Assembly: GCA_041649895.1 (NCBI GenBank)
Contig: JBAZMG010000006.1
Coordinates: forward strand, 1 to 23,655
Source of the DNA: Minisyncoccota bacterium
GTDB lineage: Bacteria; Patescibacteriota; Minisyncoccia; Minisyncoccales; Minisyncoccaceae
Reading direction: 5' to 3'
DNA: 23,655 nt
The position numbers and the translations under genes are program-made. This document shows, one piece after another, positions 153 through 20,512 of the stretch (the first letter of the stretch is position 1; every line of letters starts with the position of its first letter). The notes under the pieces are model-generated. The model worked only from the letters and a program-made list of their open reading frames with translations. It made no database searches and was not told where the DNA came from.

Positions 153-380
153 TTTTCCAATCTCTGACCATCTGGGAATTGAAGGCGGAGGCGCGACGGC
201 GCCGAGCCGGGCCCGAGGAACACACCAGCAGGTGGGTATCCGAGGGCAATTCCCAGCATCCCGACTATTTTCCAGTCTCTGACTTTTTGGGAATTGAAGG
301 CGGAGTCGCGACGGCGACGAGCCGGGCCCGAGGAACACGCCAACAGGTGTGTATCCGAGGGCAATTCCCAGCATCCCGAC
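132..380 (+). repeat. 115-bp tandem repeat (2 full units plus a 19-nt third start); each unit begins with the tRNA-Pro 3' T-arm/acceptor sequence and contains a GC-rich hairpin module
   Basis: CAATTCCCAGCATCCCGAC at 132-150, 247-265 and 362-380 (period exactly 115); units near-identical apart from a few substitutions. Confidence 0.9.
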
Positions 381-3102: not shown

Positions 3103-3127
3103 TAAAGCACGAATTAACTAATATTTA

Positions 3128-3300
3128 GGGCTTAATCCTTTTACAAATGATTAAGGGCGGAGCCGACGGCTTGATTGTACTCAATCACGGGCGCAGGGTT
3201 GACGAACCCGAGCCGGGCCTGAGGAAATTTTCAACAGAAAATTATCTGAAGGACGAGCCGGGACTTGAGCAAAACTTCAACAGGAGCTTATATGAAGGAA
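3128..3300 (+). repeat. Cluster of GC-rich structured modules (candidate ncRNA or leader) just upstream of the pilin array
   Basis: Hairpins CTTAATC/GATTAAG (3131-3155), AGCC-GAC-GGCT (3161-3171), TGATTG-TACT-CAATCA (3172-3187), GGGTT-GACG-AACCC (3196-3209), AATTTTC-AACA-GAAAATT (3226-3243). Invariant linkers GGGCGGAG and CGAGCCGGGCCTGAG are shared with the 181-247, 18599-18660 and 20213-20277 copies. Confidence 0.6.
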
Positions 3301-3320: not shown

Positions 3321-4205
3321 ATGAAAAAAACTATAAAAAAACAATTTGCGTTTACATTAATAGAACTGCTTATCGTTATCGCAATAATCGGAATACTCTC
3401 TGCGTTGATTATCGTGGGAATGAATAATGCAACCCAAAAAGCGACAATCGCCAAAGCGCAAGTATTTTCCAATTCACTCCGTAATTCTTTGATGTCTGGC
3501 TTGTTTGCCGAGTATAAGCTCGATGGCAACGCCAGCGACACGTGGGGGACACACACAGCCGGAACAATCAGCGGCGCATCATCTTATGCGTCCTGTATAC
3601 AAAATACTTGCTATAGTTTCGATAGCGATGATGATTATATTGAACTCGCGGATGTCGCGGATTTAAGAATGATAACCGGAGGGACTATTTCCGTTTGGAT
3701 TTATCCAAAAAGCTACGGAGAGGGCACTCTTGGAAGAATAATTGATAAGTCGTCTTCGGGCGATTCCGGTTTAGGTGGTTATACTTTTAGGAATAGTTCT
3801 CTTAATAGATTATTGTTCGTAATAAATGACGGCACCAACACACTTACTCAACAAAACGTAATAACTTATAATCAATGGCAACTTGTGACAACTACTTTTA
3901 ATGATTCCGGTAGAAAGATATACGTTAACGGAATTGATAAAACGGCATCCGGAGGTAATGAAACAGATCTACCTCCCGACAGTACGGGAATAGTGGTTAG
4001 AATTGGAAACTCCGCATATGGAACAACCAGAACTTTTGACGGATATATTGATGATGTTCAAATATATAATCAAGTAATTCCGACTTCCCAAATCCAACAA
4101 AATTACTACGCGGGACTCAACAAACTTTTTGCCAACAGGGGAGTGGAAATATCTGAATACCAACAATGCTTAACTGAATTATCAAACAATTACGCTCAAC
4201 AGTAA
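3321..4205 (+). CDS. Type IV pilin-like N-terminus + LamG/concanavalin-A-like domain protein (paralog 1 of 9, most divergent)
   Basis: MKKTIKKQFA|FTLIELLIVIAIIGILSALI prepilin-type motif with Glu+5; LamG-type hallmarks (YSFDSDDDYIEL, TISVWIYP, FDGYIDDVQIYN); shared C-terminal tail QNYYAGLNKLFANRGVEISEYQQ. Confidence 0.85.
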   Translation: MKKTIKKQFAFTLIELLIVIAIIGILSALIIVGMNNATQKATIAKAQVFSNSLRNSLMSGLFAEYKLDGNASDTWGTHTAGTISGASSYASCIQNTCYSFDSDDDYIELADVADLRMITGGTISVWIYPKSYGEGTLGRIIDKSSSGDSGLGGYTFRNSSLNRLLFVINDGTNTLTQQNVITYNQWQLVTTTFNDSGRKIYVNGIDKTASGGNETDLPPDSTGIVVRIGNSAYGTTRTFDGYIDDVQIYNQVIPTSQIQQNYYAGLNKLFANRGVEISEYQQCLTELSNNYAQQ

Positions 4206-4232
4206 TGTTTGGGTATTCGATACCCAAACATT
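4204..4232. repeat. Intergenic palindrome type 1 (13-bp arms) upstream of an A-type pilin gene
   Basis: AATGTTTGGGTAT-TCG-ATACCCAAACATT, starting inside the stop codon of paralog 1. Confidence 0.8.
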
Positions 4233-4237
4233 GAAAA

Positions 4238-5176
4238 ATGATGAATAGAAATATAAAAACAAATTTGGCATTTACATTGATAGAACTACTTGTGGTTATC
4301 GCAATCATCGGGATTTTATCTGCATTAATTATCATTGGGATGAGCTCGACAACACAGAAAGCTAGTGTTGCCAAGGCGCAGGTGTTTGCCAATTCTTTGC
4401 GCAATTCATTGATGGCGGATATGGTTTCTGAGTGGAAGCTTGATGGAAACACCAATGATACTTGGGCGGCCTCATTTGCAAACAACGGAACCTGGTGGGG
4501 AACGACCGCGCCGAATACCGTCGCAACCTATGGAACTGCGTCCGAATGCGTTTCCGGACAATGTATGGATTTTGATGGCGTGGATGATATGGTGGACTTT
4601 GGGAGCAACGCTTCTTTATCTATGGGAACAAAAGATCACACAGTCTCTTTATGGGTTAAGTTTGATAATGCGACCGCAACAGACATAGACACATTGGTTA
4701 TCTGTGGAGCAATGACGGGAACAGGGAAAGATGGGTATTGGATTACAAGACTTACCGATAGATTATACTTTTATTTTACTGATGGAGAAGGAGCAAATAC
4801 AAGAATTGCCGGCTATTTATCCGCAGCCGGAACATTAATTGCTAATAATTGGTATCAAATAACCGTAACTATGGATAGGGACGGAAATGTAACGGGATAT
4901 ATAAACGGAACATCGCAAATAAGTTGGGCTATTTCTCCTCAGCCTGGAGACGTACAAAATTCCATAAGCTTTCGAATGGGAGCTTTTACTACATCCCTGT
5001 ATCGTCTCGCCGGTAAAATGGATGAAGTGAGAATTTTTCACGCTATTACGACAATATCTCAAATAGAGCAAAACTACTTCGCGGGACTGAACAAACTTTT
5101 TGCCAACAGGGGAGTGGAAACATCAGAATACCAACAACGCTTAACTGAATTATCAAACAATTACGCACGGGATTAA
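4238..5176 (+). CDS. Pilin-like + LamG-domain protein (paralog 2, subtype A); real start may be the second ATG at 4241
   Basis: M(M)NRNIKTNLA|FTLIELLVVIAIIGILSALI; EWKLDGNTNDTW...CMDFDGVDDMVDFG...TVSLWVKFDNA...GKMDEVRIFHAI; preceded by palindrome 4204-4232. Confidence 0.85.
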   Translation: MMNRNIKTNLAFTLIELLVVIAIIGILSALIIIGMSSTTQKASVAKAQVFANSLRNSLMADMVSEWKLDGNTNDTWAASFANNGTWWGTTAPNTVATYGTASECVSGQCMDFDGVDDMVDFGSNASLSMGTKDHTVSLWVKFDNATATDIDTLVICGAMTGTGKDGYWITRLTDRLYFYFTDGEGANTRIAGYLSAAGTLIANNWYQITVTMDRDGNVTGYINGTSQISWAISPQPGDVQNSISFRMGAFTTSLYRLAGKMDEVRIFHAITTISQIEQNYFAGLNKLFANRGVETSEYQQRLTELSNNYARD

Positions 5177-5206
5177 AATGTTTGGGGGTTAAACCCCCAA
5201 ACATTT
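5176..5206. repeat. Intergenic palindrome type 2 (13-bp arms)
   Basis: AAATGTTTGGGGG-TTAAA-CCCCCAAACATTT. Confidence 0.8.
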
Positions 5207-5213
5207 AAAAACG

Positions 5214-6104
5214 ATGAATAGAAATATAAAAACAAAATTGGCATTTACATTGATTGAGCTACTTGTGGTAATTGCAATCATCGGGATTTTATCCGCTTTG
5301 ATCATTATTGGGATGAGCTCGACAACGCAGAAAGCAAACATTGCAAAATCACAAATATTTGCCAATTCTTTGCGCAATTCATTGATGGGGGACATGGTTT
5401 CGGAGTGGAAGCTTGACGAAGGAGCTGGCGATACAATATCTGATACGTGGGGCAGCAATAATGGAACAAAAGCTGGGGCAACATGGGAAGCAATAACAAC
5501 CAACTGCGTCTACGGCAAGTGCTTATCTTTTGATGGTGATGCTGATAATATAAATTTCGGAAATAAAACTGATTTTAATTTGGCTAGCACAAGCCACACT
5601 ATTTCGGTTTGGTTTAAAACAAGTACGACAACTACTGACCATATAATTAGTCGCTTTAACGGCGGAAGTCCCGGCGCTGGATATGTTATTTTTGTGTCCT
5701 CTGGAAAGGTTTGTTTTTCGGAAAGAGCAGACGGGGGAGACTTTCTTGCCCGCGATTCAGCGCTAACCTACAATGATAATTCTTGGCATTTTGTAACTTA
5801 CACGGTTGATATTTCTTTAAAAACAGGGAGGTTTTGCATTGATGGAACTTTTTTGCCCCTGGATACTTATACTGGAAACTTAATAAATTATAATAATAAT
5901 TTATATATCGGTGGACCACAGGTAGGATACTATTTTACTGGCCTAATAGACGATATACGCATATATGATGCCGCAATGCCAGCTTTCCAAATCAACGAAC
6001 AATATTACACCGGATTGAATAAACTTTTGGCAAACAGGGGAGTGGAAACATCTGAATACGAGCAAAGAATCGTAGAATTAAATTATAATTATGCAGAAAA
6101 TTAA
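5214..6104 (+). CDS. Pilin-like + LamG-domain protein (paralog 3, A-type leader, divergent body)
   Basis: MNRNIKTKLA|FTLIELLVVIAIIGILSALI; CLSFDGDADNINFG...TISVWFK...FTGLIDDIRIYDAAM; preceded by palindrome 5176-5206. Confidence 0.85.
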   Translation: MNRNIKTKLAFTLIELLVVIAIIGILSALIIIGMSSTTQKANIAKSQIFANSLRNSLMGDMVSEWKLDEGAGDTISDTWGSNNGTKAGATWEAITTNCVYGKCLSFDGDADNINFGNKTDFNLASTSHTISVWFKTSTTTTDHIISRFNGGSPGAGYVIFVSSGKVCFSERADGGDFLARDSALTYNDNSWHFVTYTVDISLKTGRFCIDGTFLPLDTYTGNLINYNNNLYIGGPQVGYYFTGLIDDIRIYDAAMPAFQINEQYYTGLNKLLANRGVETSEYEQRIVELNYNYAEN

Positions 6105-7047
6105 AATTAACGCATTTACATTGATAGAACTACTTGTGGTTATTGCAATCATCGGAATTTTATCTGCTTTAATTGTTATCGGGATGAGCTCGACAACGCA
6201 AAAAGCCAGTGTTGCAAAAGCGCAAGTATTTGCGAATTCTCTGCGCAATTCGTTGCTGGCGGATATGGTTTCGGAGTGGAAATTGGATGACGGGACTGGA
6301 AACAGCACCACAAAAGATTCCTGGGCTTCGGCTTTTGCCAATACGGGGACCTTGGGAACAGCGGCAGTAGGGGATGCAAGCGAGCCCACATGGCTAAGTA
6401 CCGGTTGTGTTTCCGGAAACTGTCTTTCGTTTGACGGCGCTGATGATTATGTTGATTTCGGAAATAATGCGTCCCTATCAATGGGAACTAAAGATCATAC
6501 TGTATCACTCTGGGTTAAGTTTGATAATGCAACAGCGCCCGCTCCTAATAATGCGGAAACGCTGGCTCGTTGTGGGGTCCAAGCTGCCGGAGTTGGGCGG
6601 GATGGATATTGGATTTATAGGACTGGGAGTAGTCTATTTTTTTATTTTTCTGATGGTTCGGCGGATAGCATAGGCGGCTCATTATCAGGGTCCGGGACAC
6701 TAATAGCTAACACTTGGTATAACATAGTTGTTGCACTCGATAGAGATATTTCTGCCTATATGTATATAAATGGAGTTAAACAAACAGGCTACTCATTAAA
6801 TATCGTACCACAAAATGGAGACGTACAAAATACATCCTTGTTAATGATTGGGGCAACTTCAGCTGGCTATGGTCGGCTTGACGGTCAAATGGATGAGGTA
6901 AGAATCTTTCACGCTATTACGACAATATCTCAAATAGAGCAGAACTACTTTGCCGGACTGAACAAACTTTTGGCAAACAGGGGAGTGGAAACGTCTGAAT
7001 ATGAGCAAAGAGTCGCGAATTTAACTTCAAACTATGCAAAGAATTAA
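6091..7047 (+). CDS. Pilin-like + LamG-domain protein (paralog 4, subtype B)
   Basis: MQKIKINA|FTLIELLVVIAIIGILSALI; EWKLDDGTGNSTTKDSWAS...CLSFDGADDYVDFG; ATG lies inside the previous gene's NYAEN-stop codons (14-nt overlap). Confidence 0.85.
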   Translation: MQKIKINAFTLIELLVVIAIIGILSALIVIGMSSTTQKASVAKAQVFANSLRNSLLADMVSEWKLDDGTGNSTTKDSWASAFANTGTLGTAAVGDASEPTWLSTGCVSGNCLSFDGADDYVDFGNNASLSMGTKDHTVSLWVKFDNATAPAPNNAETLARCGVQAAGVGRDGYWIYRTGSSLFFYFSDGSADSIGGSLSGSGTLIANTWYNIVVALDRDISAYMYINGVKQTGYSLNIVPQNGDVQNTSLLMIGATSAGYGRLDGQMDEVRIFHAITTISQIEQNYFAGLNKLLANRGVETSEYEQRVANLTSNYAKN

Positions 7048-7978
7048 AATTAACGCATTTACTTTGATAGAACTGTTGGTTGTAATAGCGATCATCGGTA
7101 TTTTATCTGCGTTGATTGTTGTGGGTATGAGCTCGGCGACGCAGAAAGCCAGTGTTGCAAAAGCGCAAGTATTTGCTAATTCTTTGCGGAATTCCTTAAT
7201 GGCGGATATGGTTTCCGAATGGAAATTAGATGACGGAACCGGAAACAGCACAACGAAAGATTCCTGGGCTTCGACTTTTACTAATACCGGGACACTGGGG
7301 ACTGCGACGGTAGGGGATGCAAGCGAGCCCACATGGCTAAGTACTGGTTGCGTTTCTGGAAACTGTCTATCTTTCGATGGAGCTGACGACTATGTTAATT
7401 TTGGCAATAACGCTTCATTGAGTATGGGAACAAAAGATCACACAATATCTTTATGGGTTGAATTTATTAATCCAACGGCACTGCAAGATGAAACAATGAT
7501 TCGCACGGGAGCTGGCGGTAGTGGAGCTGGCTATTGGATTTATAGATTTACCGGAACAAATAAATTAAGGTTTCTTTTTCATGACGGAGTTGGTTCGCAG
7601 GCATCCGGATATTTGTCGGCGGATGGCACATTAGTTGCTGGTATTTGGTATAATATAGCTATAATAATGGATAGGGATTCCAATGCCCAAGCTTATATAA
7701 ACGGGCAAATACAAACCAGTTACCCAATAGTTATATCTGGAAACCAAGGAACTATACAAAATGTTACAAATCTAATGGTTGGAGCGCAAGACGCGTCAAC
7801 ACGACGGCTTACCGGCAAAATGGATGAAGTAAAAATATTTCACGCAATACCGTCAATCTCCCAAATTCAACAAAACTATTACGCCGGACTGAACAAACTT
7901 TTGGCAAAAAGAGGGGTGGAAACATCAGAATATGAGCAAAGAGTCGCGGATTTAATTTCAAACTACGCAAAAGAATAA
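7034..7978 (+). CDS. Pilin-like + LamG-domain protein (paralog 5, subtype B)
   Basis: MQRIKINA|FTLIELLVVIAIIGILSALI; same architecture; 14-nt overlap with paralog 4. Confidence 0.85.
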   Translation: MQRIKINAFTLIELLVVIAIIGILSALIVVGMSSATQKASVAKAQVFANSLRNSLMADMVSEWKLDDGTGNSTTKDSWASTFTNTGTLGTATVGDASEPTWLSTGCVSGNCLSFDGADDYVNFGNNASLSMGTKDHTISLWVEFINPTALQDETMIRTGAGGSGAGYWIYRFTGTNKLRFLFHDGVGSQASGYLSADGTLVAGIWYNIAIIMDRDSNAQAYINGQIQTSYPIVISGNQGTIQNVTNLMVGAQDASTRRLTGKMDEVKIFHAIPSISQIQQNYYAGLNKLLAKRGVETSEYEQRVADLISNYAKE

Positions 7979-8005
7979 TGTTCGGGTATTCGATACCCAG
8001 ACATT
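7977..8005. repeat. Intergenic palindrome type 1 (one mismatch, one G-U)
   Basis: AATGTTCGGGTAT-TCG-ATACCCAGACATT. Confidence 0.75.
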
Positions 8006-8010
8006 GAAAA

Positions 8011-8955
8011 ATGATGAATAGAAATATAAAAACAAATTTGGCATTTACGTTGATTGAGCTATTGGTCGTAATAGCGATTATTGGTATTCTTTCGGCTTTG
8101 ATCGTTATTGGGATGAGCTCGACAACTCAAAAAGCTAGTGTTGCCAAGGGCCAAGTATTTGCTAATTCTTTACGCAATTCGTTAATGTCAGATATGGTCT
8201 CGGAGTGGAAATTGGATGGAAACACTAACGACACTTGGGCGGCCTCGTACGCGAACAACGGAACTTGGTCAGGTCCAACCGCGCCAAACACAGTCGCTAC
8301 TTATGGACCGGCAGCTGAATGCGTTTCCGGACAATGTATGGATTTTGATGGAGTGGACGATTTAGTTGATTTTGGAAATAACGCTTCGCTATCAATGGGA
8401 ACAAAAGATCACACAGTCTCTTTATGGATTAAGTTTGACAATGCAACAGCCCCACAACACGAAGTTTTGATTATTAGTGGCGGCAACATTGTTGCTCCTG
8501 GATATGCTGGTTATGATATTTTAAGATACACCGGAATGAGTCGACTATATGTTGAATTTTCCGATGGCTCGGCAAATAATGTCGGTGCCTATTTATCCGC
8601 ATCGGGAACATTAGTATCTAATATTTGGTATAATATAGTAGTAATTTTTGACAGAGACGGAGTTGCCAAGGCATATATTAACGGATTGTCACAGGCGGGA
8701 ACATTAAATATATCGGTTCAACCGGGCAATGTACAAAATATTTACAACTTAAGGTTGGGGGCGTGGACACCGTCCCAATTTCGTCTTGCTGGTAAAATGG
8801 ATGAAGTGAGAATATTTCACGCGATAACAACACTTTCCCAAATTCAGCAAAACTACTACGCGGGACTGAACAAGCTTTTTGCAAACAGGGGAGTGGAAAC
8901 ATCCGAATATCAACAAAGGATCGTAGAATTAAATTCGAATTATGCAAAGAATTAA
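8011..8955 (+). CDS. Pilin-like + LamG-domain protein (paralog 6, subtype A); start may be 8014
   Basis: M(M)NRNIKTNLA|FTLIELLVVIAIIGILSALI; N-terminal ~150 aa near-identical to paralog 2; preceded by palindrome 7977-8005. Confidence 0.85.
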   Translation: MMNRNIKTNLAFTLIELLVVIAIIGILSALIVIGMSSTTQKASVAKGQVFANSLRNSLMSDMVSEWKLDGNTNDTWAASYANNGTWSGPTAPNTVATYGPAAECVSGQCMDFDGVDDLVDFGNNASLSMGTKDHTVSLWIKFDNATAPQHEVLIISGGNIVAPGYAGYDILRYTGMSRLYVEFSDGSANNVGAYLSASGTLVSNIWYNIVVIFDRDGVAKAYINGLSQAGTLNISVQPGNVQNIYNLRLGAWTPSQFRLAGKMDEVRIFHAITTLSQIQQNYYAGLNKLFANRGVETSEYQQRIVELNSNYAKN

Positions 8956-9895
8956 AATCAACGCATTCACATTAATAGAACTACTTGTGGTTATTGCAAT
9001 CATCGGGATTTTGTCTGCATTAATTATCATTGGGATGAGCTCGACAACACAGAAAGCTAGTGTTGCCAAGGCGCAAGTGTTCGCTAATTCTCTACGTAAT
9101 TCATTGATGTCGGATATGGTTTCGGAGTGGAAGCTTGATGATGGGACAGGAAACAGCACAACGAAAGATTCCTGGGCTTCGACTTTTACAAATACGGGGA
9201 CCTTGGGAACCGCAGCAGTGGGGGATGCAAGCGAGCCCACATGGCTAAGTACTGGTTGCGTTTCCGGAAACTGTCTTTCTTTTGACGGCACCGACGATTA
9301 TGTTGATTTTGGGAGCAATGCGTCTTTATCTATGGGGACTAAAGACCATACTGCGTCATTCTGGGTTAAATTTGATAATGCGGTAGCAATAGAAAATAAT
9401 ACACTGATTAAATGCGGGGCCTTCGGCGCCTCTCTTGGATCAGACGGATACTGGCTTGTTAGATTAAACGGTACAAACAAACTATATTGTTATTTCTCCG
9501 ACGGAGAAACAACAACATTGCTTGGTAATTATTTATCCGCGGATGGTTCTTTGGTTGCCGATACTTGGTACAATATTGTTGTAATGTTCGACAGGAGCGG
9601 AGTGGCTCAAGCATACATAAATGGCGTAATACAATCAGGAACACTAAACATATCATCACAAACAGGAGACGTGCAAAATAGTAGAAGTTTTACTATTGGA
9701 GCCTGGTCAGCAACACTACATCGATCCGCTGGCAAAATGGACGAAGTACGAATATTCCACGCGATTACGACACTTTCTCAAATTCAACAAAACTACTTCG
9801 CAGGACTGAACAAACTTTTGGCTAATGGGGAAGTGGAAACATCAGAATACCAACAACGCTTAACTGAATTATCAAACAATTACGCACGGGATTAA
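8942..9895 (+). CDS. Pilin-like + LamG-domain protein (paralog 7, subtype B N-terminus with the paralog-2 type C-terminus)
   Basis: MQRIKINA|FTLIELL...; the last 64 nt of the CDS plus the downstream hairpin are 100% identical to 5113-5210. Confidence 0.85.
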   Translation: MQRIKINAFTLIELLVVIAIIGILSALIIIGMSSTTQKASVAKAQVFANSLRNSLMSDMVSEWKLDDGTGNSTTKDSWASTFTNTGTLGTAAVGDASEPTWLSTGCVSGNCLSFDGTDDYVDFGSNASLSMGTKDHTASFWVKFDNAVAIENNTLIKCGAFGASLGSDGYWLVRLNGTNKLYCYFSDGETTTLLGNYLSADGSLVADTWYNIVVMFDRSGVAQAYINGVIQSGTLNISSQTGDVQNSRSFTIGAWSATLHRSAGKMDEVRIFHAITTLSQIQQNYFAGLNKLLANGEVETSEYQQRLTELSNNYARD

Positions 9896-9925
9896 AATGT
9901 TTGGGGGTTAAACCCCCAAACATTT
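9895..9925. repeat. Intergenic palindrome type 2 (identical to 5176-5206)
   Basis: AAATGTTTGGGGG-TTAAA-CCCCCAAACATTT. Confidence 0.8.
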
Positions 9926-9931
9926 AAAACA

Positions 9932-10870
9932 ATGAATAGAAATATAAAAACAAAATTGGCATTTACATTGATAGAATTATTGGTCGTGATTGCAATCATC
10001 GGGATACTTTCGGCTTTGATCATTATTGGGATGAGTTCGACGACACAGAAAGCTAGTGTTGCCAAATCGCAGGTGTTTGCCAATTCATTGCGCAATTCTT
10101 TGATGGCGGATATGGTTTCAGAATGGAAATTGGACGGGAATACTAACGATACTTGGGCGTCTTCAAATGCGAACAACGGAACGTGGTCGGGACCAACCGC
10201 GCCGAATGCCGTCGCTACTTACGGGACGGCAGCCGAATGCGTCTCCGGACAATGTATGGATTTTGACGGTGTGGATGATGTAGTTGATTTTGGAAATAAC
10301 GCTTCGTTATCAATGGGAACAAAAGATCACACAGTCTCTATTTGGGTTAAATTCGATAACGCATCACCCCCAACAGAAGAAGAAACATTAATTTTTTGCG
10401 GCGGAACAGTGGCCGCGACAGAAGGCTATTGGATCAGGAGACAAATTGGAGGAACAGGAATTTATTTTTGTTTTAACGATGGCTCGGCAACAAGGGCTAA
10501 CGGTGCTTTATCAGCGAACGGAACTTTAATTAATAATATTTGGTATAATATAGTAATAACAATGGACAGAGATTCTAATGCCCAAGCATATATAAATGGA
10601 CAAAAACAAACTGGTTATGTTGTTAGTCTCTCCTCTTGGCAAACCGACATACAGAATACTTATAATTTCCAAATTGGTGGATTTGGAGCTGTTTATACAA
10701 TGGCGGGAAAAATTGATGAAGTAAGAATATTCAATGCGATAACAACACTTTCTCAAATTCAACAAAATTACTTTGCAGGACTGAACAAACTTTTTACCAA
10801 CAAGGGAGTGGAACCGTCTGAATACCAAAAAGAGGTCACGAATTTAATTTCAAACCATGCAAAGAATTAA
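9932..10870 (+). CDS. Pilin-like + LamG-domain protein (paralog 8, subtype A)
   Basis: MNRNIKTKLA|FTLIELLVVIAIIGILSALI; preceded by palindrome 9895-9925. Confidence 0.85.
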   Translation: MNRNIKTKLAFTLIELLVVIAIIGILSALIIIGMSSTTQKASVAKSQVFANSLRNSLMADMVSEWKLDGNTNDTWASSNANNGTWSGPTAPNAVATYGTAAECVSGQCMDFDGVDDVVDFGNNASLSMGTKDHTVSIWVKFDNASPPTEEETLIFCGGTVAATEGYWIRRQIGGTGIYFCFNDGSATRANGALSANGTLINNIWYNIVITMDRDSNAQAYINGQKQTGYVVSLSSWQTDIQNTYNFQIGGFGAVYTMAGKIDEVRIFNAITTLSQIQQNYFAGLNKLFTNKGVEPSEYQKEVTNLISNHAKN

Positions 10871-11816
10871 CAAAGCATTTACATTAATTGAGCTATTGGT
10901 TGTGATAGCGATTATTGGTATTCTTTCGGCTTTGATCGTTATTGGGATGAGCTCAACAACACAGAAAGCCAGTGTTGCCAAGGCGCAAGTGTTTGCGAAT
11001 TCTCTGCGCAATTCGTTGCTGGCGGATATGGTTTCGGAGTGGAAATTGGATGACGGGACTGGAAACAGCACCACAAAAGATTCGTGGGCTTCGGTTTATG
11101 CCAATACGGGAACATTGGGAACAGCGGCGGTGGGGGACGCGAGCGAGCCAACATGGCTAAGTACCGGTTGCGTTTCCGGAAACTGCCTTGATTTTGACGG
11201 CGCTGACGATTATGTTGATTTTGGAAGCAATGCGTCTTTATCTATGGGGACTAAAGACCATATTGCGTCATTCTGGGTTAAATTTGATAATGCAGTGGCG
11301 GGCGCGCAACCCGAAACGCTAATAGTTTGCGGTTCAGTTACCGGTGGGGCGACTGGAGACGATGGTTATTGGATTGTACGCTATCAAGGAACAAGCAAAA
11401 TAAGAGGATATTTTTCTGATGGTTCGGCGGCATATATCGGCGGAGATTTATCTGCTAATAGTGTTTTTGTCGCTAATACTTGGTATAACATAGTAACAAC
11501 TTTTGATAGAGATGGAGTTGTTCAGGCATATGTTAATGGATTAAAACAAACGGGTTATTCAATAAACATTGCTCCTCAACAAGGAGATGTACAAAATTAT
11601 ATGAATTTGCGAATTGGAGCCTATTCGGCAACCGGACACCGTCTCGATGGTCAAATGGATGAGGTAAGAATCTTTCACGCCATAACAACGCTGTCTCAAA
11701 TAAAGCAAAACTATTACGCAGGACTGAACAAACTTTTTGCCAAAAACTCCCTAAATAGGGTAGAATATGAGTATAGGATGGCGGAATTACAAACTTCATC
11801 TTTAGCAAACAAATGA
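10857..11816 (+). CDS. Pilin-like + LamG-domain protein (paralog 9, subtype B, divergent C-terminal tail)
   Basis: MQRINKA|FTLIELLVVIAIIGILSALI; 14-nt overlap with paralog 8; its TGA stop overlaps the next gene's ATG (ATGA at 11813-11816). Confidence 0.85.
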   Translation: MQRINKAFTLIELLVVIAIIGILSALIVIGMSSTTQKASVAKAQVFANSLRNSLLADMVSEWKLDDGTGNSTTKDSWASVYANTGTLGTAAVGDASEPTWLSTGCVSGNCLDFDGADDYVDFGSNASLSMGTKDHIASFWVKFDNAVAGAQPETLIVCGSVTGGATGDDGYWIVRYQGTSKIRGYFSDGSAAYIGGDLSANSVFVANTWYNIVTTFDRDGVVQAYVNGLKQTGYSINIAPQQGDVQNYMNLRIGAYSATGHRLDGQMDEVRIFHAITTLSQIKQNYYAGLNKLFAKNSLNRVEYEYRMAELQTSSLANK

Positions 11817-17814: not shown

Positions 17815-18483
17815 ATGCAAACATATATTTTGTATCTATTGTTGCTTATAGTCTCTTATTTGGCCGGATCTATTCCTTTCAGTTATATTATTACCCGTCT
17901 CTCCACGCATAAAAATATTTTGGAGATCGGATGGAAAAAAAGCTCGGGGTCCAATGTTTTAAAAAACGTGGGCAAATGGCAGGGAGTACTTGTTTTTCTT
18001 TTGGATGTGGCCAAAGGATTTTTTGTCATCTGGCTCGCGAGAGAACTCGGCACGCCAGCATACTTTCAATCGTTGTGCGGAGTCGCCGCGGTAGTGGGAC
18101 ACAATTGGTCTATATTTTTAAAGGGGAGCGGGGGCAGAGGATTAGCCGCTCTGGTCGGAGCCTTGCTTGCTTTCTCTCCTTTGTTTCTCGCGATAATCTT
18201 ACTCCCGACAATTCTTTTAACTTTTCTTTGGACCGCCTCGATCGGCACACTTTTATCTCTCGCGTTCGGAATCGCGATTGGATTCGGCTGTGTTTATTGC
18301 AAGCCAATGGGCCTTATGCTACTTATATCCTTGACCCCGATATTTATAAAACGCTTAAGCCCGATAAAAGAGATCCCCGGAGCAAAGAACAAAGCGGAAC
18401 TGATCAAAAATCGTTTGCTTTTTGACCAAGACACTGTTCCGCCTTTACGAATAACAAAGTATTTTAATAAGAAAAAGGCTTAA
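17815..18483 (+). CDS. plsY: PlsY-family acyltransferase paralog 3 (most divergent)
   Basis: AGSIPFSYIITRL, LDVAKG, GHNWSIFLKGSGGRGLAA; motif 1 degenerate (KKSSGSNVLKN); 222 aa. Confidence 0.6.
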   Translation: MQTYILYLLLLIVSYLAGSIPFSYIITRLSTHKNILEIGWKKSSGSNVLKNVGKWQGVLVFLLDVAKGFFVIWLARELGTPAYFQSLCGVAAVVGHNWSIFLKGSGGRGLAALVGALLAFSPLFLAIILLPTILLTFLWTASIGTLLSLAFGIAIGFGCVYCKPMGLMLLISLTPIFIKRLSPIKEIPGAKNKAELIKNRLLFDQDTVPPLRITKYFNKKKA

Positions 18484-18498
18484 AATATAAAACGTTTT

Positions 18499-18734
18499 GC
18501 AAACATTTATTTAGACTGTATTATTAGGACGCTTCTCGCAAGAAAATTTTCACCAGAAAATTTGCTGAGCGCTTAATTATTTATTTTAAAATAATTAAGG
18601 GCGGAGGGCCGACGGGCCCGAGCCTGTCCTGAGCGCAAATTCAACTGAATTTGACGCGAAGGAGTGCAGACGCCGGCGACGGCCGGCGGATGACACGTCG
18701 AACGAATAATGCAGTCTAAAAGCTAAATGTTTGC
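18499..18734 (+). ncRNA. 236-nt GC-rich structured element closed by a ~27-bp inverted repeat (candidate ncRNA or MITE-like element) just upstream of tRNA-Arg
   Basis: Arms GCAAACATTTATTTAGACTGTATTATT (18499-18525) and AATAATGCAGTCTAAAAGCTAAATGTTTGC (18705-18734). Internal hairpins at 18544-18563, 18572-18599, 18606-18619 (GGGCC-GACG-GGCCC), 18636-18653, 18672-18687 (GCCGGC-GACG-GCCGGC). Confidence 0.55.
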
Positions 18735-18744
18735 ATTGAGATTA

Positions 18745-18816
18745 GCCCCCGTAGCTCAACGGATAGAGTACTAGTCTTCGGAACTAGTGGTGCGGGTTCG
18801 AATCCTGCCGGGGGCA
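18745..18816 (+). tRNA. tRNA-Arg (anticodon TCG)
   Basis: Acceptor GCCCCCG/CGGGGGC, D arm GCTC-AACGGATA-GAGT, anticodon stem CTAGT/ACTAG with loop CTTCGGA, T arm GCGGG-TTCGAAT-CCTGC; 72 nt. Confidence 0.85.
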
Positions 18817-18841
18817 CAGCAAATTTTGCTGACGCAAAATA

Positions 18842-18943
18842 TTGCAGTAATTAGTAGTTTGTAGTTTGTAATTAGGGTAAGGAAATTATTAGGATAACAA
18901 AATTTGCTCCCAAAGTACCAACTACTCACACAAAGTACAAAAG
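18842..18943 (+). repeat. tRNA-linked ~100-nt repeat, copy 1 (long imperfect hairpin)
   Basis: TTGCAGTAATTAGTAGTTTGTAGTTTGTAATTAGGGTAAGGAAATTATTAGGATA...TTTGCTCCCAAAGTACCAACTACTCACACAAAGTACAAAAG; the TTTGTAG heptad arm pairs with the CAAAGTAC arm. Confidence 0.8.
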
Positions 18944-18945
18944 CG

Positions 18946-19066
18946 TTGCAGTAATTAGTAGTTTGTAGTTTGTAATTAGGGTAAGGAAATTATTAGGATA
19001 TTTTAAAGTAAAATTTATTCCCAATCCGCCAGCTGGCGGAACAAATTACTCACACAAAGTACAAAA
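18946..19066 (+). repeat. tRNA-linked repeat, copy 2 (carries an extra CCGCCAGCTGGCGG hairpin)
   Basis: First 54 nt identical to copy 1; 3' arm ACAAATTACTCACACAAAGTACAAAAA. Confidence 0.8.
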
Positions 19067-19072
19067 ATTTTT

Positions 19073-19427
19073 ATGTTTGATTTTGAAAAATTAGACGTCT
19101 ATAAAAAAGCAAAACAACTAAATAAAAATGTTTTGCGTTTCCTGAAAAAACAACAAACAAATAGATACATATCTTAGAGACCAGCTAAAAAGAGCTTCCA
19201 TTAGTATTGTCATAAACATAGCGGAGGGGAGTGGGAAATTTTCAAAACCGGACAAAAAGAACTTTTACACAACTGCCCGCGGGTCCACGTATGAGTGTGT
19301 TTCTCTGCTTGAAATTATATGCGAAGAAGGCTATATTTCCAAAGAAATCTTTGATATTTTTTACAAAAACTTCGAAATTATCTCAAAAATGCTATTAGGA
19401 CTAATAAATAGCCAAAACAAGGCTTAG
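19073..19427 (+). pseudogene. Four-helix-bundle protein gene (23S rRNA intervening-sequence protein family), disrupted by a 1-nt frameshift
   Basis: Frame A: MFDFEKLDVYKKAKQLNKNVLRFLKKQQTNRYIS-stop (TAG 19175-19177). Frame B from 19179: DQLKRASISIVINIAEGSGKFSKPDKKNFYTTARGSTYECVSLLEI...KMLLGLINSQNKA-stop. Removing one T near 19172 would give NRYILRDQLKRAS. Confidence 0.75.
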
Positions 19428-19431
19428 TTGC

Positions 19432-20003: not shown

Positions 20004-20076
20004 GCCCCGTTAGCTCAGTTGGTAGAGCAGGAAGCTCTTAACTTCAAGGTCGTGGGTTCGAATCCCTCACGGGGCA
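20004..20076 (+). tRNA. tRNA-Lys (anticodon CTT)
   Basis: Acceptor GCCCCGT/ACGGGGC, D arm GCTC-AGTTGGTA-GAGC, anticodon loop CTCTTAA, T arm GTGGG-TTCGAAT-CCCTC (one T-T mismatch; one G-A mismatch at the top of the anticodon stem); 73 nt. Confidence 0.8.
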
Positions 20077-20104
20077 CAGCAAATTTTGCCCCCGAGGCAA
20101 AATC

Positions 20105-20205
20105 TTGCAGTAGTTTGTAATTTGTAGTTTGTAGTTTGGGTAAGGAAATTATCAGGATATATAAAATTTGCTCCCAAAGTACAAATTACACACACAAAGT
20201 ACAAA
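20105..20205 (+). repeat. tRNA-linked ~100-nt repeat, copy 3
   Basis: TTGCAGTAGTTTGTAATTTGTAGTTTGTAGTTTGGGTAAGGAAATTATCAGGATA...TTTGCTCCCAAAGTACAAATTACACACACAAAGTACAAAG; homologous to 18842-18943. Confidence 0.8.
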
Positions 20206-20296
20206 GGATTCGAAGGCGTAGCCACGACGGTGGCGAGCCGGGCCCTGAGAATTTTTCAGCAGAAAAATATCGAAGGGCGAATCCCTCACGGGGCAC
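20206..20296 (+). repeat. GC-rich structured module fused to a 19-nt duplicate of the tRNA-Lys 3' end
   Basis: GGATTCG (20206-20212) pairs with CGAATCC (20278-20284). Hairpins GCCAC-GACG-GTGGC (20221-20234) and ATTTTTC-AGCA-GAAAAAT (20251-20268). CGAATCCCTCACGGGGCAC at 20278-20296 duplicates 20059-20077. Confidence 0.8.
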
Positions 20297-20512
20297 CACT
20301 TCGCTCCGACCAATCGGAGCTACGCGGTGCAAGCACAGCCCAGCTTAAAGTTGAATTGACGTTTTAGAAAAGCGAAGTGGTCCCGCGAAGCCTTGGCGAA
20401 GTAGGGGCGAAGTGGGACAGCACCCTTACATACAAAAACTTAATAATGAACAGACACCCATCTCGGTATAAAACCTGGGATGAGGCGCATAACAAATGTA
20501 ATAATTAAAAAT

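Follow-up and report, generated by a model that had tools for sequence, protein, structure and literature searches.

The 23,655-nucleotide (nt) contig JBAZMG010000006.1 of a Minisyncoccota bacterium, hereafter the window, carries a 236-nt element, E18, in the gap between the gene plsY-3 and a gene for tRNA-Arg. E18 is closed by an inverted repeat, and an earlier note made from the sequence had proposed it as either a novel non-coding RNA or a miniature inverted-repeat transposable element (MITE). The analysis described herein indicates that E18 is neither a unique non-coding RNA gene nor a classical MITE, and that the repeat family to which it belongs is new, widespread in the Candidate Phyla Radiation (CPR) and without prior annotation. 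The locus comprises the following features.

17815..18483, + strand: plsY-3, the gene upstream of E18 (Pfam G3P_acyltransf)
18499..18734, + strand: E18, a free-standing mosaic element apparently inserted between plsY-3 and tRNA-Arg (fold z score, empty orthologous spacers)
18499..18525, + strand: 5' arm of the 27-bp closing helix, pairing with 18705-18734 in the RNA and DNA folds
about 18531..18571, + strand: P3-type hairpin with loop CACCAG (local covariance-model match at 18545-18562)
18572..18599, + strand: AT-rich 11-bp hairpin "Pa", stem CTTAATTATTT/AAATAATTAAG, immediately 5' of GGCGGAG
18588..18667, + strand: core family module of E18 (covariance model R1, 60.1 bits, E = 1.2e-13)
18600-18624, + strand: P2 of the E18 core, with a GACG loop (GGGCC-GACG-GGCCC hairpin at 18606-18619)
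18625-18664, + strand: P3 of the E18 core, an AT hairpin with loop CAACTG (AACT), after CGAGCCTGTCCTGAG
18664..18696, + strand: extra P2-type hairpin, GA / GCCGGC-GACG-GCCGGC / GA (hairpin proper 18672-18687)
18705..18734, + strand: 3' arm of the closing helix (RNA and DNA folds)
18745..18817, + strand: tRNA-Arg(tcg), 10 nt 3' of E18 (ARAGORN and Rfam)

The inverted-repeat pairing, the five hairpins and the absence of an open reading frame (ORF), all described in the earlier note, were borne out by the sequence, by folding and by an ORF check. The closing helix comprises 27 pairs, including one G-U, with a 3-nt bulge, and encloses the five hairpins; the RNA minimum free energy (MFE) of the element is -109.5 kcal/mol, compared with -58.3 +/- 4.2 kcal/mol in dinucleotide shuffles (z = -12.1, with 0 of 200 shuffles as good), and the fold is as unusual when calculated with DNA parameters (z = -11.4). 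E18 is separated by 15 nt from the plsY-3 stop (18483) and by 10 nt from tRNA-Arg(tcg), and the only two ORFs that overlap it are antisense, begin with GTG and encode 33 aa each, leaving no meaningful ORF. Searches of the window against Rfam 15, at gathering and at permissive thresholds (E up to 10), returned tRNAs only, with no signal recognition particle (SRP) RNA, 6S, RNase P or transfer-messenger RNA (tmRNA), and ARAGORN likewise detected no tmRNA in the window; the description of E18 as structured, non-coding and distinct from housekeeping RNAs is thus upheld. Between plsY-3 and tRNA-Arg, terminator-like sites are absent and the sole promoter-like site is weak (TTTGCA-17-TATTAT, 9/12 matches, inside the 5' arm), so that E18 is likely to be co-transcribed with tRNA-Arg. 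That part of the earlier proposal is plausible.

The core of E18 recurs elsewhere in the window, where model R1 (described below) recovers five copies, all on the + strand. The copies other than E18 itself are listed here.

173..256, + strand: family module, unit 1 of a 115-bp tandem repeat behind tRNA-Pro (79-152); R1 85.5 bits, tRNA 3'-end copy at 247-265
288..371, + strand: family module, unit 2 behind tRNA-Pro; R1 84.8 bits, tRNA 3'-end copy at 362-380
3119..3300, + strand: E3, a second free-standing composite element; core 3187-3257 with R1 58.5 bits, local P3-like match at 3264-3298
20204..20298, + strand: family module behind tRNA-Lys (20004-20077); R1 85.0 bits

The R1 matches substantiate the relationship of E18 to the tRNA-Pro copies, the tRNA-Lys copy and the 3119-3300 element that had been recognized earlier; the tRNA-fused copies and the counterpart at 3131-3155 exist as described. 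A segment of ~57-65 nt, located at 18600-18656 in E18, is found again at 184-240, 299-355, 3190-3246 and 20215-20271, with loops and linkers kept and stems varying, and the linker motif occurs four times in the window against 0.25 expected. The P2 stem of the second tRNA-Pro unit differs from that of the first by a compensatory change (GCGC/GCGC to TCGC/GCGA), and the tRNA-Lys unit contains an exact copy of the last 18 nt of its tRNA (20278-20295) followed by CCA, a triplet that the tRNA-Lys gene does not encode.

The individual parts of E18 can likewise be traced to other members of the family. A covariance model derived exclusively from other copies assigns 60 bits (E = 1e-13) to the E18 core, and over 58 nt the E18 module shares 88% identity with a tRNA-Lys-linked module of the related locus L254. 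The top 18 nt of the P3-type hairpin recur with 100% identity at the top of P3 in the tRNA-Arg-linked modules of L253 and L172, and the extra hairpin at 18664-18696 has the GA-flanked GACG design of P2. The position of Pa is occupied by CTTAATC/GATTAAG at 3131-3155 and by CTTGATTG/CAATCAAG in L164, L166, L192 and L229; the earlier suggestion that this 11-bp stem takes the place of a T-loop helix in the tRNA-fused copies was mistaken, as that position belongs, in those copies, to the 5' strand of helix P1, the partner of the tRNA 3'-end copy. E18 contains no copy of the tRNA-Arg 3' end, and no tRNA lies upstream of it. Its order of parts (a P3-like hairpin, the AT hairpin Pa, the full module and an extra P2-like hairpin) amounts to P3 / P2-P3 / P2, as expected of a slice through a tandem array, and E18 may thus be read as a rearranged array fragment that gained a long closing helix. 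Judged from its sequence, E18 is a lineage-specific mosaic of pieces from a larger repeat family and not a separate new RNA gene; of the proposed novel non-coding RNA, the structured and non-coding character thus stands, and the separate gene architecture does not. A homology of the E18 3' arm to the tRNA-Arg copy and flank of L172 was suggestive by eye, was not recovered by BLAST and was dropped.

The extent of the family was assessed by searching metagenome contigs with a fixed-length 48-nt pattern derived from the window copies, for which at least 118 loci are listed (130 copies). These loci lie on low-GC, CPR-like contigs, and their P2 stems are fully complementary in nearly all cases. An ungapped alignment (A2) of 65 distinct standard copies served to build covariance model R1, which gave at least 146 matches in 773 kb of sequence from 100 CPR-like metagenome loci, trailing off into weak, degenerate copies. 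A looser pattern applied to species genomes yielded mostly chance matches in high-GC genomes, and among the matches listed only one was real (L012, where the motif lies behind tRNA-Ser in a Saccharibacteria metagenome-assembled genome). Two scans of viral contigs gave only chance matches with a short pattern and none with a specific one; Rfam searches of 11 further loci, at gathering and permissive thresholds, returned tRNAs only; and the literature, searched by topic and by sequence strings, provided no description of the family. The loose pattern also hit an ordinary tRNA-Asp in a Clostridiales locus (L111 3749-3771, GGCGGAGGTCGACGGTTCGAGCC), in the anticodon-stem / variable-loop / T-arm region, and this likeness of the P2 region to part of a tRNA may be due to chance or may hint at a tRNA ancestry.

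The family module, including P1, forms a three-way junction of ~85 nt, of which the P2 and P3 part accounts for ~64 nt. P1 is proposed to pair A2 columns 2-8 with 77-83; P2 consists of GGC/GCC, an internal loop of G-N-A over G-A, a 5-bp stem and an invariant GACG loop; and P3 comprises ~16 pairs with an invariant bulged A and a C-ANCA-G loop. In A2, 87.7% of the cells are paired, 418 cells carry changes on both sides, and the covariation score is 0.549, compared with 0.188 when partners are shuffled and about 0.11 when they are slid. G-U and U-G pairs together number 60, against 11 for A-C and C-A, and the folded strand is therefore the tRNA-sense strand. In the modules behind tRNA-Lys in L254 and L255, the base of P2 reads GCC...GGC in place of GGC...GCC, a compensatory swap outside the reach of the search pattern. 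Two further motifs were considered and set aside: a loop-loop pseudoknot between GACG and GUCG, as the P3 positions concerned covary as helix pairs, and a kink-turn in P2, for which the 5' strand is too short on a reading of the alignment.

The linkage of the family to tRNA genes is pronounced. A same-strand tRNA lies within 200 nt upstream in 82 of the 107 modules with enough context, typically at a distance of 56-72 nt, and 15 tRNA isotypes are represented among the standard units. Nineteen modules are situated between two co-oriented tRNAs with short spacers and, judged from this position, would be part of polycistronic tRNA precursors. From 5' to 3', the standard unit consists of a hairpin (X) right after the tRNA, a segment complementary to the tRNA, the module and a copy of tRNA nucleotides 56-76. 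X is often followed by a T run and is homologous between units at different tRNAs, while the complementary segment (7-10 nt) matches the T-loop and the 3' strand of the T-stem and forms helix P1 with the tRNA copy, leaving a single-stranded tail that ends in CCA. The 5' strand of P1 pairs with the tRNA copy of its own unit at 7/7 positions in 26 of the 65 units, compared with 10% when partners are swapped. The tRNA repeat begins at C56, and its end is offset from the tRNA 3' end by 0 (n=16), +1 (n=7) or +2 (n=4) in intact units. Identity continues into the trailer in some units, which are therefore tandem DNA duplications; other units are decayed. In units designated "type B", the repeat is made up of the last few tRNA nucleotides and the start of the trailer, and the complementary segment can pair with either the upstream or the downstream copy. 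A complement of the acceptor 5' strand was absent upstream of P1 in the handful of units that were read (e.g., L142, L146 and L155), and thus no minihelix is formed there. A candidate sigma-70 promoter between the tRNA terminator and the module was not convincing, with weak extended -10-like strings only.

Neither the exact duplication of tRNA nucleotides 56-76 nor its closest analogue among known systems, the RtT repeat of E. coli, had been noticed earlier. In E. coli MG1655, the two tRNA-Tyr genes of tyrT-tyrV are separated and followed by RtT units of 178 bp, four in all (RF00391, 133-138 bits), one of which overlaps rttR and tpr. The RtT unit is built as GGGGAAGGAU - structured core - AUCCUUCCCC-CACCACCA and terminates in 19 nt from the 3' end of tRNA-Tyr, CCA included; in the Rfam consensus, the 5' segment GGGGAAGGAU is paired with the tRNA-derived T-loop and T-stem 3' strand AUCCUUCCCC. 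RtT RNA is processed from the tRNA operon transcript; it has been described in the processing of the tyrT transcript and possibly acts in the stringent response. Like the CPR standard units, RtT units are arranged in tandem directly behind a tRNA and in the same orientation, their core is closed by a helix of a 5' segment with the tRNA copy, and they run through CCA. The CPR family differs from RtT in that it serves 15 tRNA isotypes rather than one locus and has free-standing forms, such as E18, which lies upstream of tRNA-Arg and is devoid of a tRNA copy. Even at E up to 1-10, RF00391 matched neither the window nor any of 11 further loci, and R1 gave at most 7 bits on the E. coli tyrT locus; this failure of the covariance models to detect each other argues that the CPR family is an analogue or very distant relative of RtT and not a member.

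Orthologous loci provide a view of the turnover of these units. The window belongs to a Candidatus Paceibacterota genome. The gene order DegV - plsY - plsY - tRNA-Arg(tcg) - T4SS (type IV secretion system) pilin - tRNA-Lys(ctt) - rpsO - pnp is kept in L172 and L253-L259, whose PlsY proteins are about 60% identical to that of the window. The spacer between plsY and tRNA-Arg, the comparison of which in relatives had been suggested by the earlier note, is 2-41 nt long and without E18 in five related Paceibacterota lineages (L172, L253, L254/255, L256/257 and L258/259), and in L172 it holds a good promoter (TTGACT-17-TATTTT). Among the compared lineages, E18 is known only from the genome of the window, and the view that it represents an insertion at the plsY/tRNA-Arg site is supported. 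Behind tRNA-Arg and tRNA-Lys, units are missing from L256-L259 and number one to three in L172, L253 and L254/L255; L254 and L255 have identical PlsY and different unit numbers. The last units of arrays end mid-module, one and the same P3 sequence can be found at different tRNAs and in free-standing as well as tRNA-linked copies, and other small palindromes insert into the family repeats. In addition, L254 (2410-2520) has four copies, and L255 one to two, of a 27-nt mini-repeat in which the module end is joined to 13 nt of the tRNA-Arg copy. The ORFs near the 130 copies (n=741) are not enriched in reverse transcriptases, integrases, transposases or nucleases, and they reveal no conserved partner gene. 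Long closing helices around Pa, P2, P3 and extra hairpins also characterize free-standing copies in L192 (190-nt tandem units) and L164, with stem sequences unrelated to that of E18; closing stems that differ in sequence among genomes fit a structural requirement rather than a terminal repeat bound by a transposase.

On balance, and with some reserve, E18 is considered to be a rearranged copy of an RtT-like repeat family that resides in the tRNA transcription units of Patescibacteria and is mainly an expendable passenger. According to this proposal, the units would be transcribed within tRNA precursors and released by tRNA-processing enzymes, which in the case of E18 would be RNase P, acting at 18745, and probably RNase III, acting on the 27-bp helix. 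Local multiplication may proceed via recombination or template switching at the conserved sequence from the T-loop to the tRNA 3' end, and P1 may be retained to sequester the duplicated tRNA piece, thereby letting the neighbouring tRNA fold and mature normally. A near-perfect helix around a dispensable insert in a stable RNA is likewise found in the RNase III-processed stems of rRNA operons and of 23S intervening sequences, whereas E18 lies in a tRNA leader and its processing is predicted only.

Several points weigh against the passenger proposal. The transcription and processing of the units are deduced from position only, and recombination or template switching is a proposed route to new tRNAs. 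Some features hint at selection over pure passenger status: distant CPR lineages, Saccharibacteria among them, share about 25 module positions without variation; many units keep a flawless 21-nt tRNA copy beside an unrelated flank; and the copy carries CCA where the tRNA gene does not in four units (L148, L190, L226 and the tRNA-Lys unit of the window, 20278-20298). Many standard units have a terminator-like hairpin and T run between the tRNA and the module, and such units would therefore need read-through or a promoter of their own. For E18 in particular, the promoter-like site within the 5' arm could mean that the arm is not transcribed, and the 27-bp closing helix is without comparative support, as the copies found (L001 and L002) are identical.

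Some of these same observations lend substance to the idea that the family encodes a functional small RNA mimicking the tRNA 3' end (i.e., a decoy, sensor, regulator or pairing switch), with E18 as a degenerate or specialised derivative; the three-way junction would then display the cognate tRNA's acceptor 3' strand, single-stranded, together with CCA. Loop and junction nucleotides are invariant while stems covary freely across distant CPR lineages, the tRNA copy is perfect through CCA while its flanks diverge, and CCA is encoded in four units despite CCA-less genes; moreover, the 5' strand of P1 is matched to each tRNA, the type B segment pairs alternatively with the upstream tRNA end or the downstream copy, and RtT has been linked to the stringent response. 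Nevertheless, units are missing in L256-L259, vary in number between near-identical genomes and are freely decayed or truncated, no conserved partner gene accompanies the copies, and E18 is devoid of any tRNA 3'-end copy, such that this explanation is judged unlikely, if worth keeping in view. A broader form of the idea, decidedly doubtful at present, regards the family as a new RNA class rather than junk, in which a conserved three-way junction carries an exact copy of the cognate tRNA 3' end (C56 to CCA), held there by a guide-like arm; the RNA might serve as a ribozyme at the P3/P1 boundary, be CCA-tagged, copied and re-inserted behind tRNA genes, or be a decoy or sensor for enzymes or toxins that read tRNA 3' ends. 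Should this prove true, RtT would be the long-unexplained enterobacterial counterpart of the CPR family. The catalytic or retro-mobile variants are the least probable of all the explanations. They envisage a new ribozyme of hammerhead-like topology, with P1 as substrate helix and a reactive site at the P3/P1 boundary by C56, that cleaves or ligates the tRNA-derived strand, or else a CCA-ended RNA that is reverse-transcribed, and they would account for the three-way junction, whose guide-like arm fits the strand that follows a fixed junction on its 3' side, for the constancy of that junction at C56, for copies that end at the mature CCA even where the gene has none and for the head-to-tail arrays. 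RNA 3' ends that copy the T-arm and acceptor of a tRNA and end in CCA are familiar from plant-virus tRNA-like structures (TLS) and from the Mauriceville retroplasmid of Neurospora, and post-transcriptional CCA incorporation has served as evidence of RNA-level copying. The CPR units differ from these systems in being chromosomal, in lacking, in the units that were read, an acceptor 5' strand and thus an aminoacylatable minihelix, and in having no linked replicase or reverse transcriptase. Rfam, moreover, reveals no ribozyme match (hammerhead, twister, twister-sister, pistol, hatchet, HDV-like or hairpin, HDV denoting hepatitis delta virus), no reverse transcriptase lies nearby, and at several loci the duplication reaches into the trailer, pointing to duplication at the DNA level.

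Mobility at the DNA level, whether of a MITE moved by a distant transposase or of a miniature integrative element that uses the tRNA 3' end as its attachment (att) site, is improbable as well. The 27-bp inverted repeat (one G-T pair, 3-nt bulge), the empty site in relatives and a DNA fold as significant as the RNA fold would suit such an element, and tRNA 3'-end direct repeats flank the inserted DNA as they do in elements that integrate at T-loops. The MITE put forward in the earlier note is, however, poorly supported: a target-site duplication is absent (the flanks of E18, ...aaaacgtttt / attgagatta..., contain no direct repeat), and the closing stems of free-standing copies differ from genome to genome. 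Within the 23.6-kb window, the arm is unique at up to 3 mismatches. Members of the REP/BIME/REPIN group and MITEs (Correia, RUP) are likewise short, non-coding, multi-copy, hairpin-forming, intergenic and variably present; the CPR family is set apart from them by a three-way junction, invariant loops, covarying stems and obligatory tRNA linkage, and by the lack of a conserved terminal sequence, target-site duplication or associated transposase. As regards T-loop att sites, the intact tRNA, the inserted DNA and the direct repeat from the T-loop to the tRNA 3' end are shared, but the CPR insert measures only about 110-200 bp, has no integrase and forms head-to-tail arrays with truncated last units that are without the repeat, and the sequence abutting the repeat is module-specific and not T-arm-like. 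Integrases, transposases and reverse transcriptases are not enriched near the 130 copies, no copies were found in viral contigs, and the G-U bias favours one folded strand. Riboswitch and retron assignments do not fit either: a three-way junction is conserved, but the modules lie behind tRNAs and the downstream genes are unrelated; a closing repeat like that of a retron msr/msd is present, but it is flanked by plsY and tRNA-Arg, and the window encodes no reverse transcriptase. Overall, there is real room for a functional mimic of the tRNA 3' end and less for a ribozyme or retro-mobile RNA, while a MITE or att remnant fits poorly.

The genomes of CPR/Patescibacteria are among the most compact known and yet contain many copies of a covarying fold joined to exact tRNA 3' ends. 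RtT, which has the same design in E. coli, has been without explanation since the 1980s-90s, and the larger CPR family offers the comparative power of 15 isotypes, hundreds of copies and natural variants in presence/absence and copy number. Such comparisons could address the role of the units, their route to new tRNAs and the possible function of the tail taken from the tRNA. Model R1 also allows regions of this kind to be annotated, rather than being called "novel" one by one.

A number of additional observations were made on the surroundings of the family copies and on other repeats in the window. E3 (3119-3300) sits upstream of a pilin-like gene array, in which nine tandem paralogous genes of ~295-320 aa (3321-11816) follow directly 3' of the element; each encodes an N-terminal prepilin-type methylation motif and a Laminin_G_3 (concanavalin-like) domain, and their DNA identity amounts to 60-83% in blocks. 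Free-standing copies in L164 (360-560), L152, L141 and L184 are embedded amid short tandem repeats (GAATGTTTGGGGGCTTGATT) and palindromes (ATGTTTAGGGG..CCCCTAAACAT), and the 3' flank of E3 (CCTCAAACAT) matches the ATGTTTAGGGG..CCCCTAAACAT palindrome motif of these surroundings. A 16-bp perfect palindrome (TCCGCCAGCTGGCGGA), or a close variant thereof, occurs in the window (19025-19040), in L172 (about 2795-2812 and 2650-2665) and in L246, inserted in the three genomes into different repeats that include the P2 hairpin and the P1 strand of modules; it may represent a tiny mobile palindrome.

The 3' sides of the tRNA genes in the window hold further repeats. A sequence of ~130 nt is shared by the trailers of tRNA-Arg (18818-19065, two ~104-nt copies) and tRNA-Lys (20078-20205); it contains a CAGCAAATTTTGC..GCAAAAT hairpin and TTGCAGTAATTAGTAGTTTGTAGTTTG..GGGTAAGGAAATTAT..CACACAAAGTACAAA, is missing in relatives and has the look of another repeat directed at the 3' side of tRNAs. 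Also located in the variable region that follows tRNA-Arg is a gene (19074-19429, frameshift near 19175) whose product resembles by eye a four-helix bundle of the 23S rRNA intervening-sequence / Avd-like family, and a 100-aa ORF occupies the equivalent place in L254. Immediately 3' of tRNA-Val, two long near-perfect hairpins (484-590; MFE -62.5, z = -9) match R1 only weakly and could constitute another tRNA-trailer element or a bidirectional terminator. Lastly, at 20299-20480 the window has, in place of the rpsO leader shared by its relatives (…attaacaattaaatattgaagagacacctgttttgg…), a GC-rich stretch with repeated GCGAAGTGG-like motifs.

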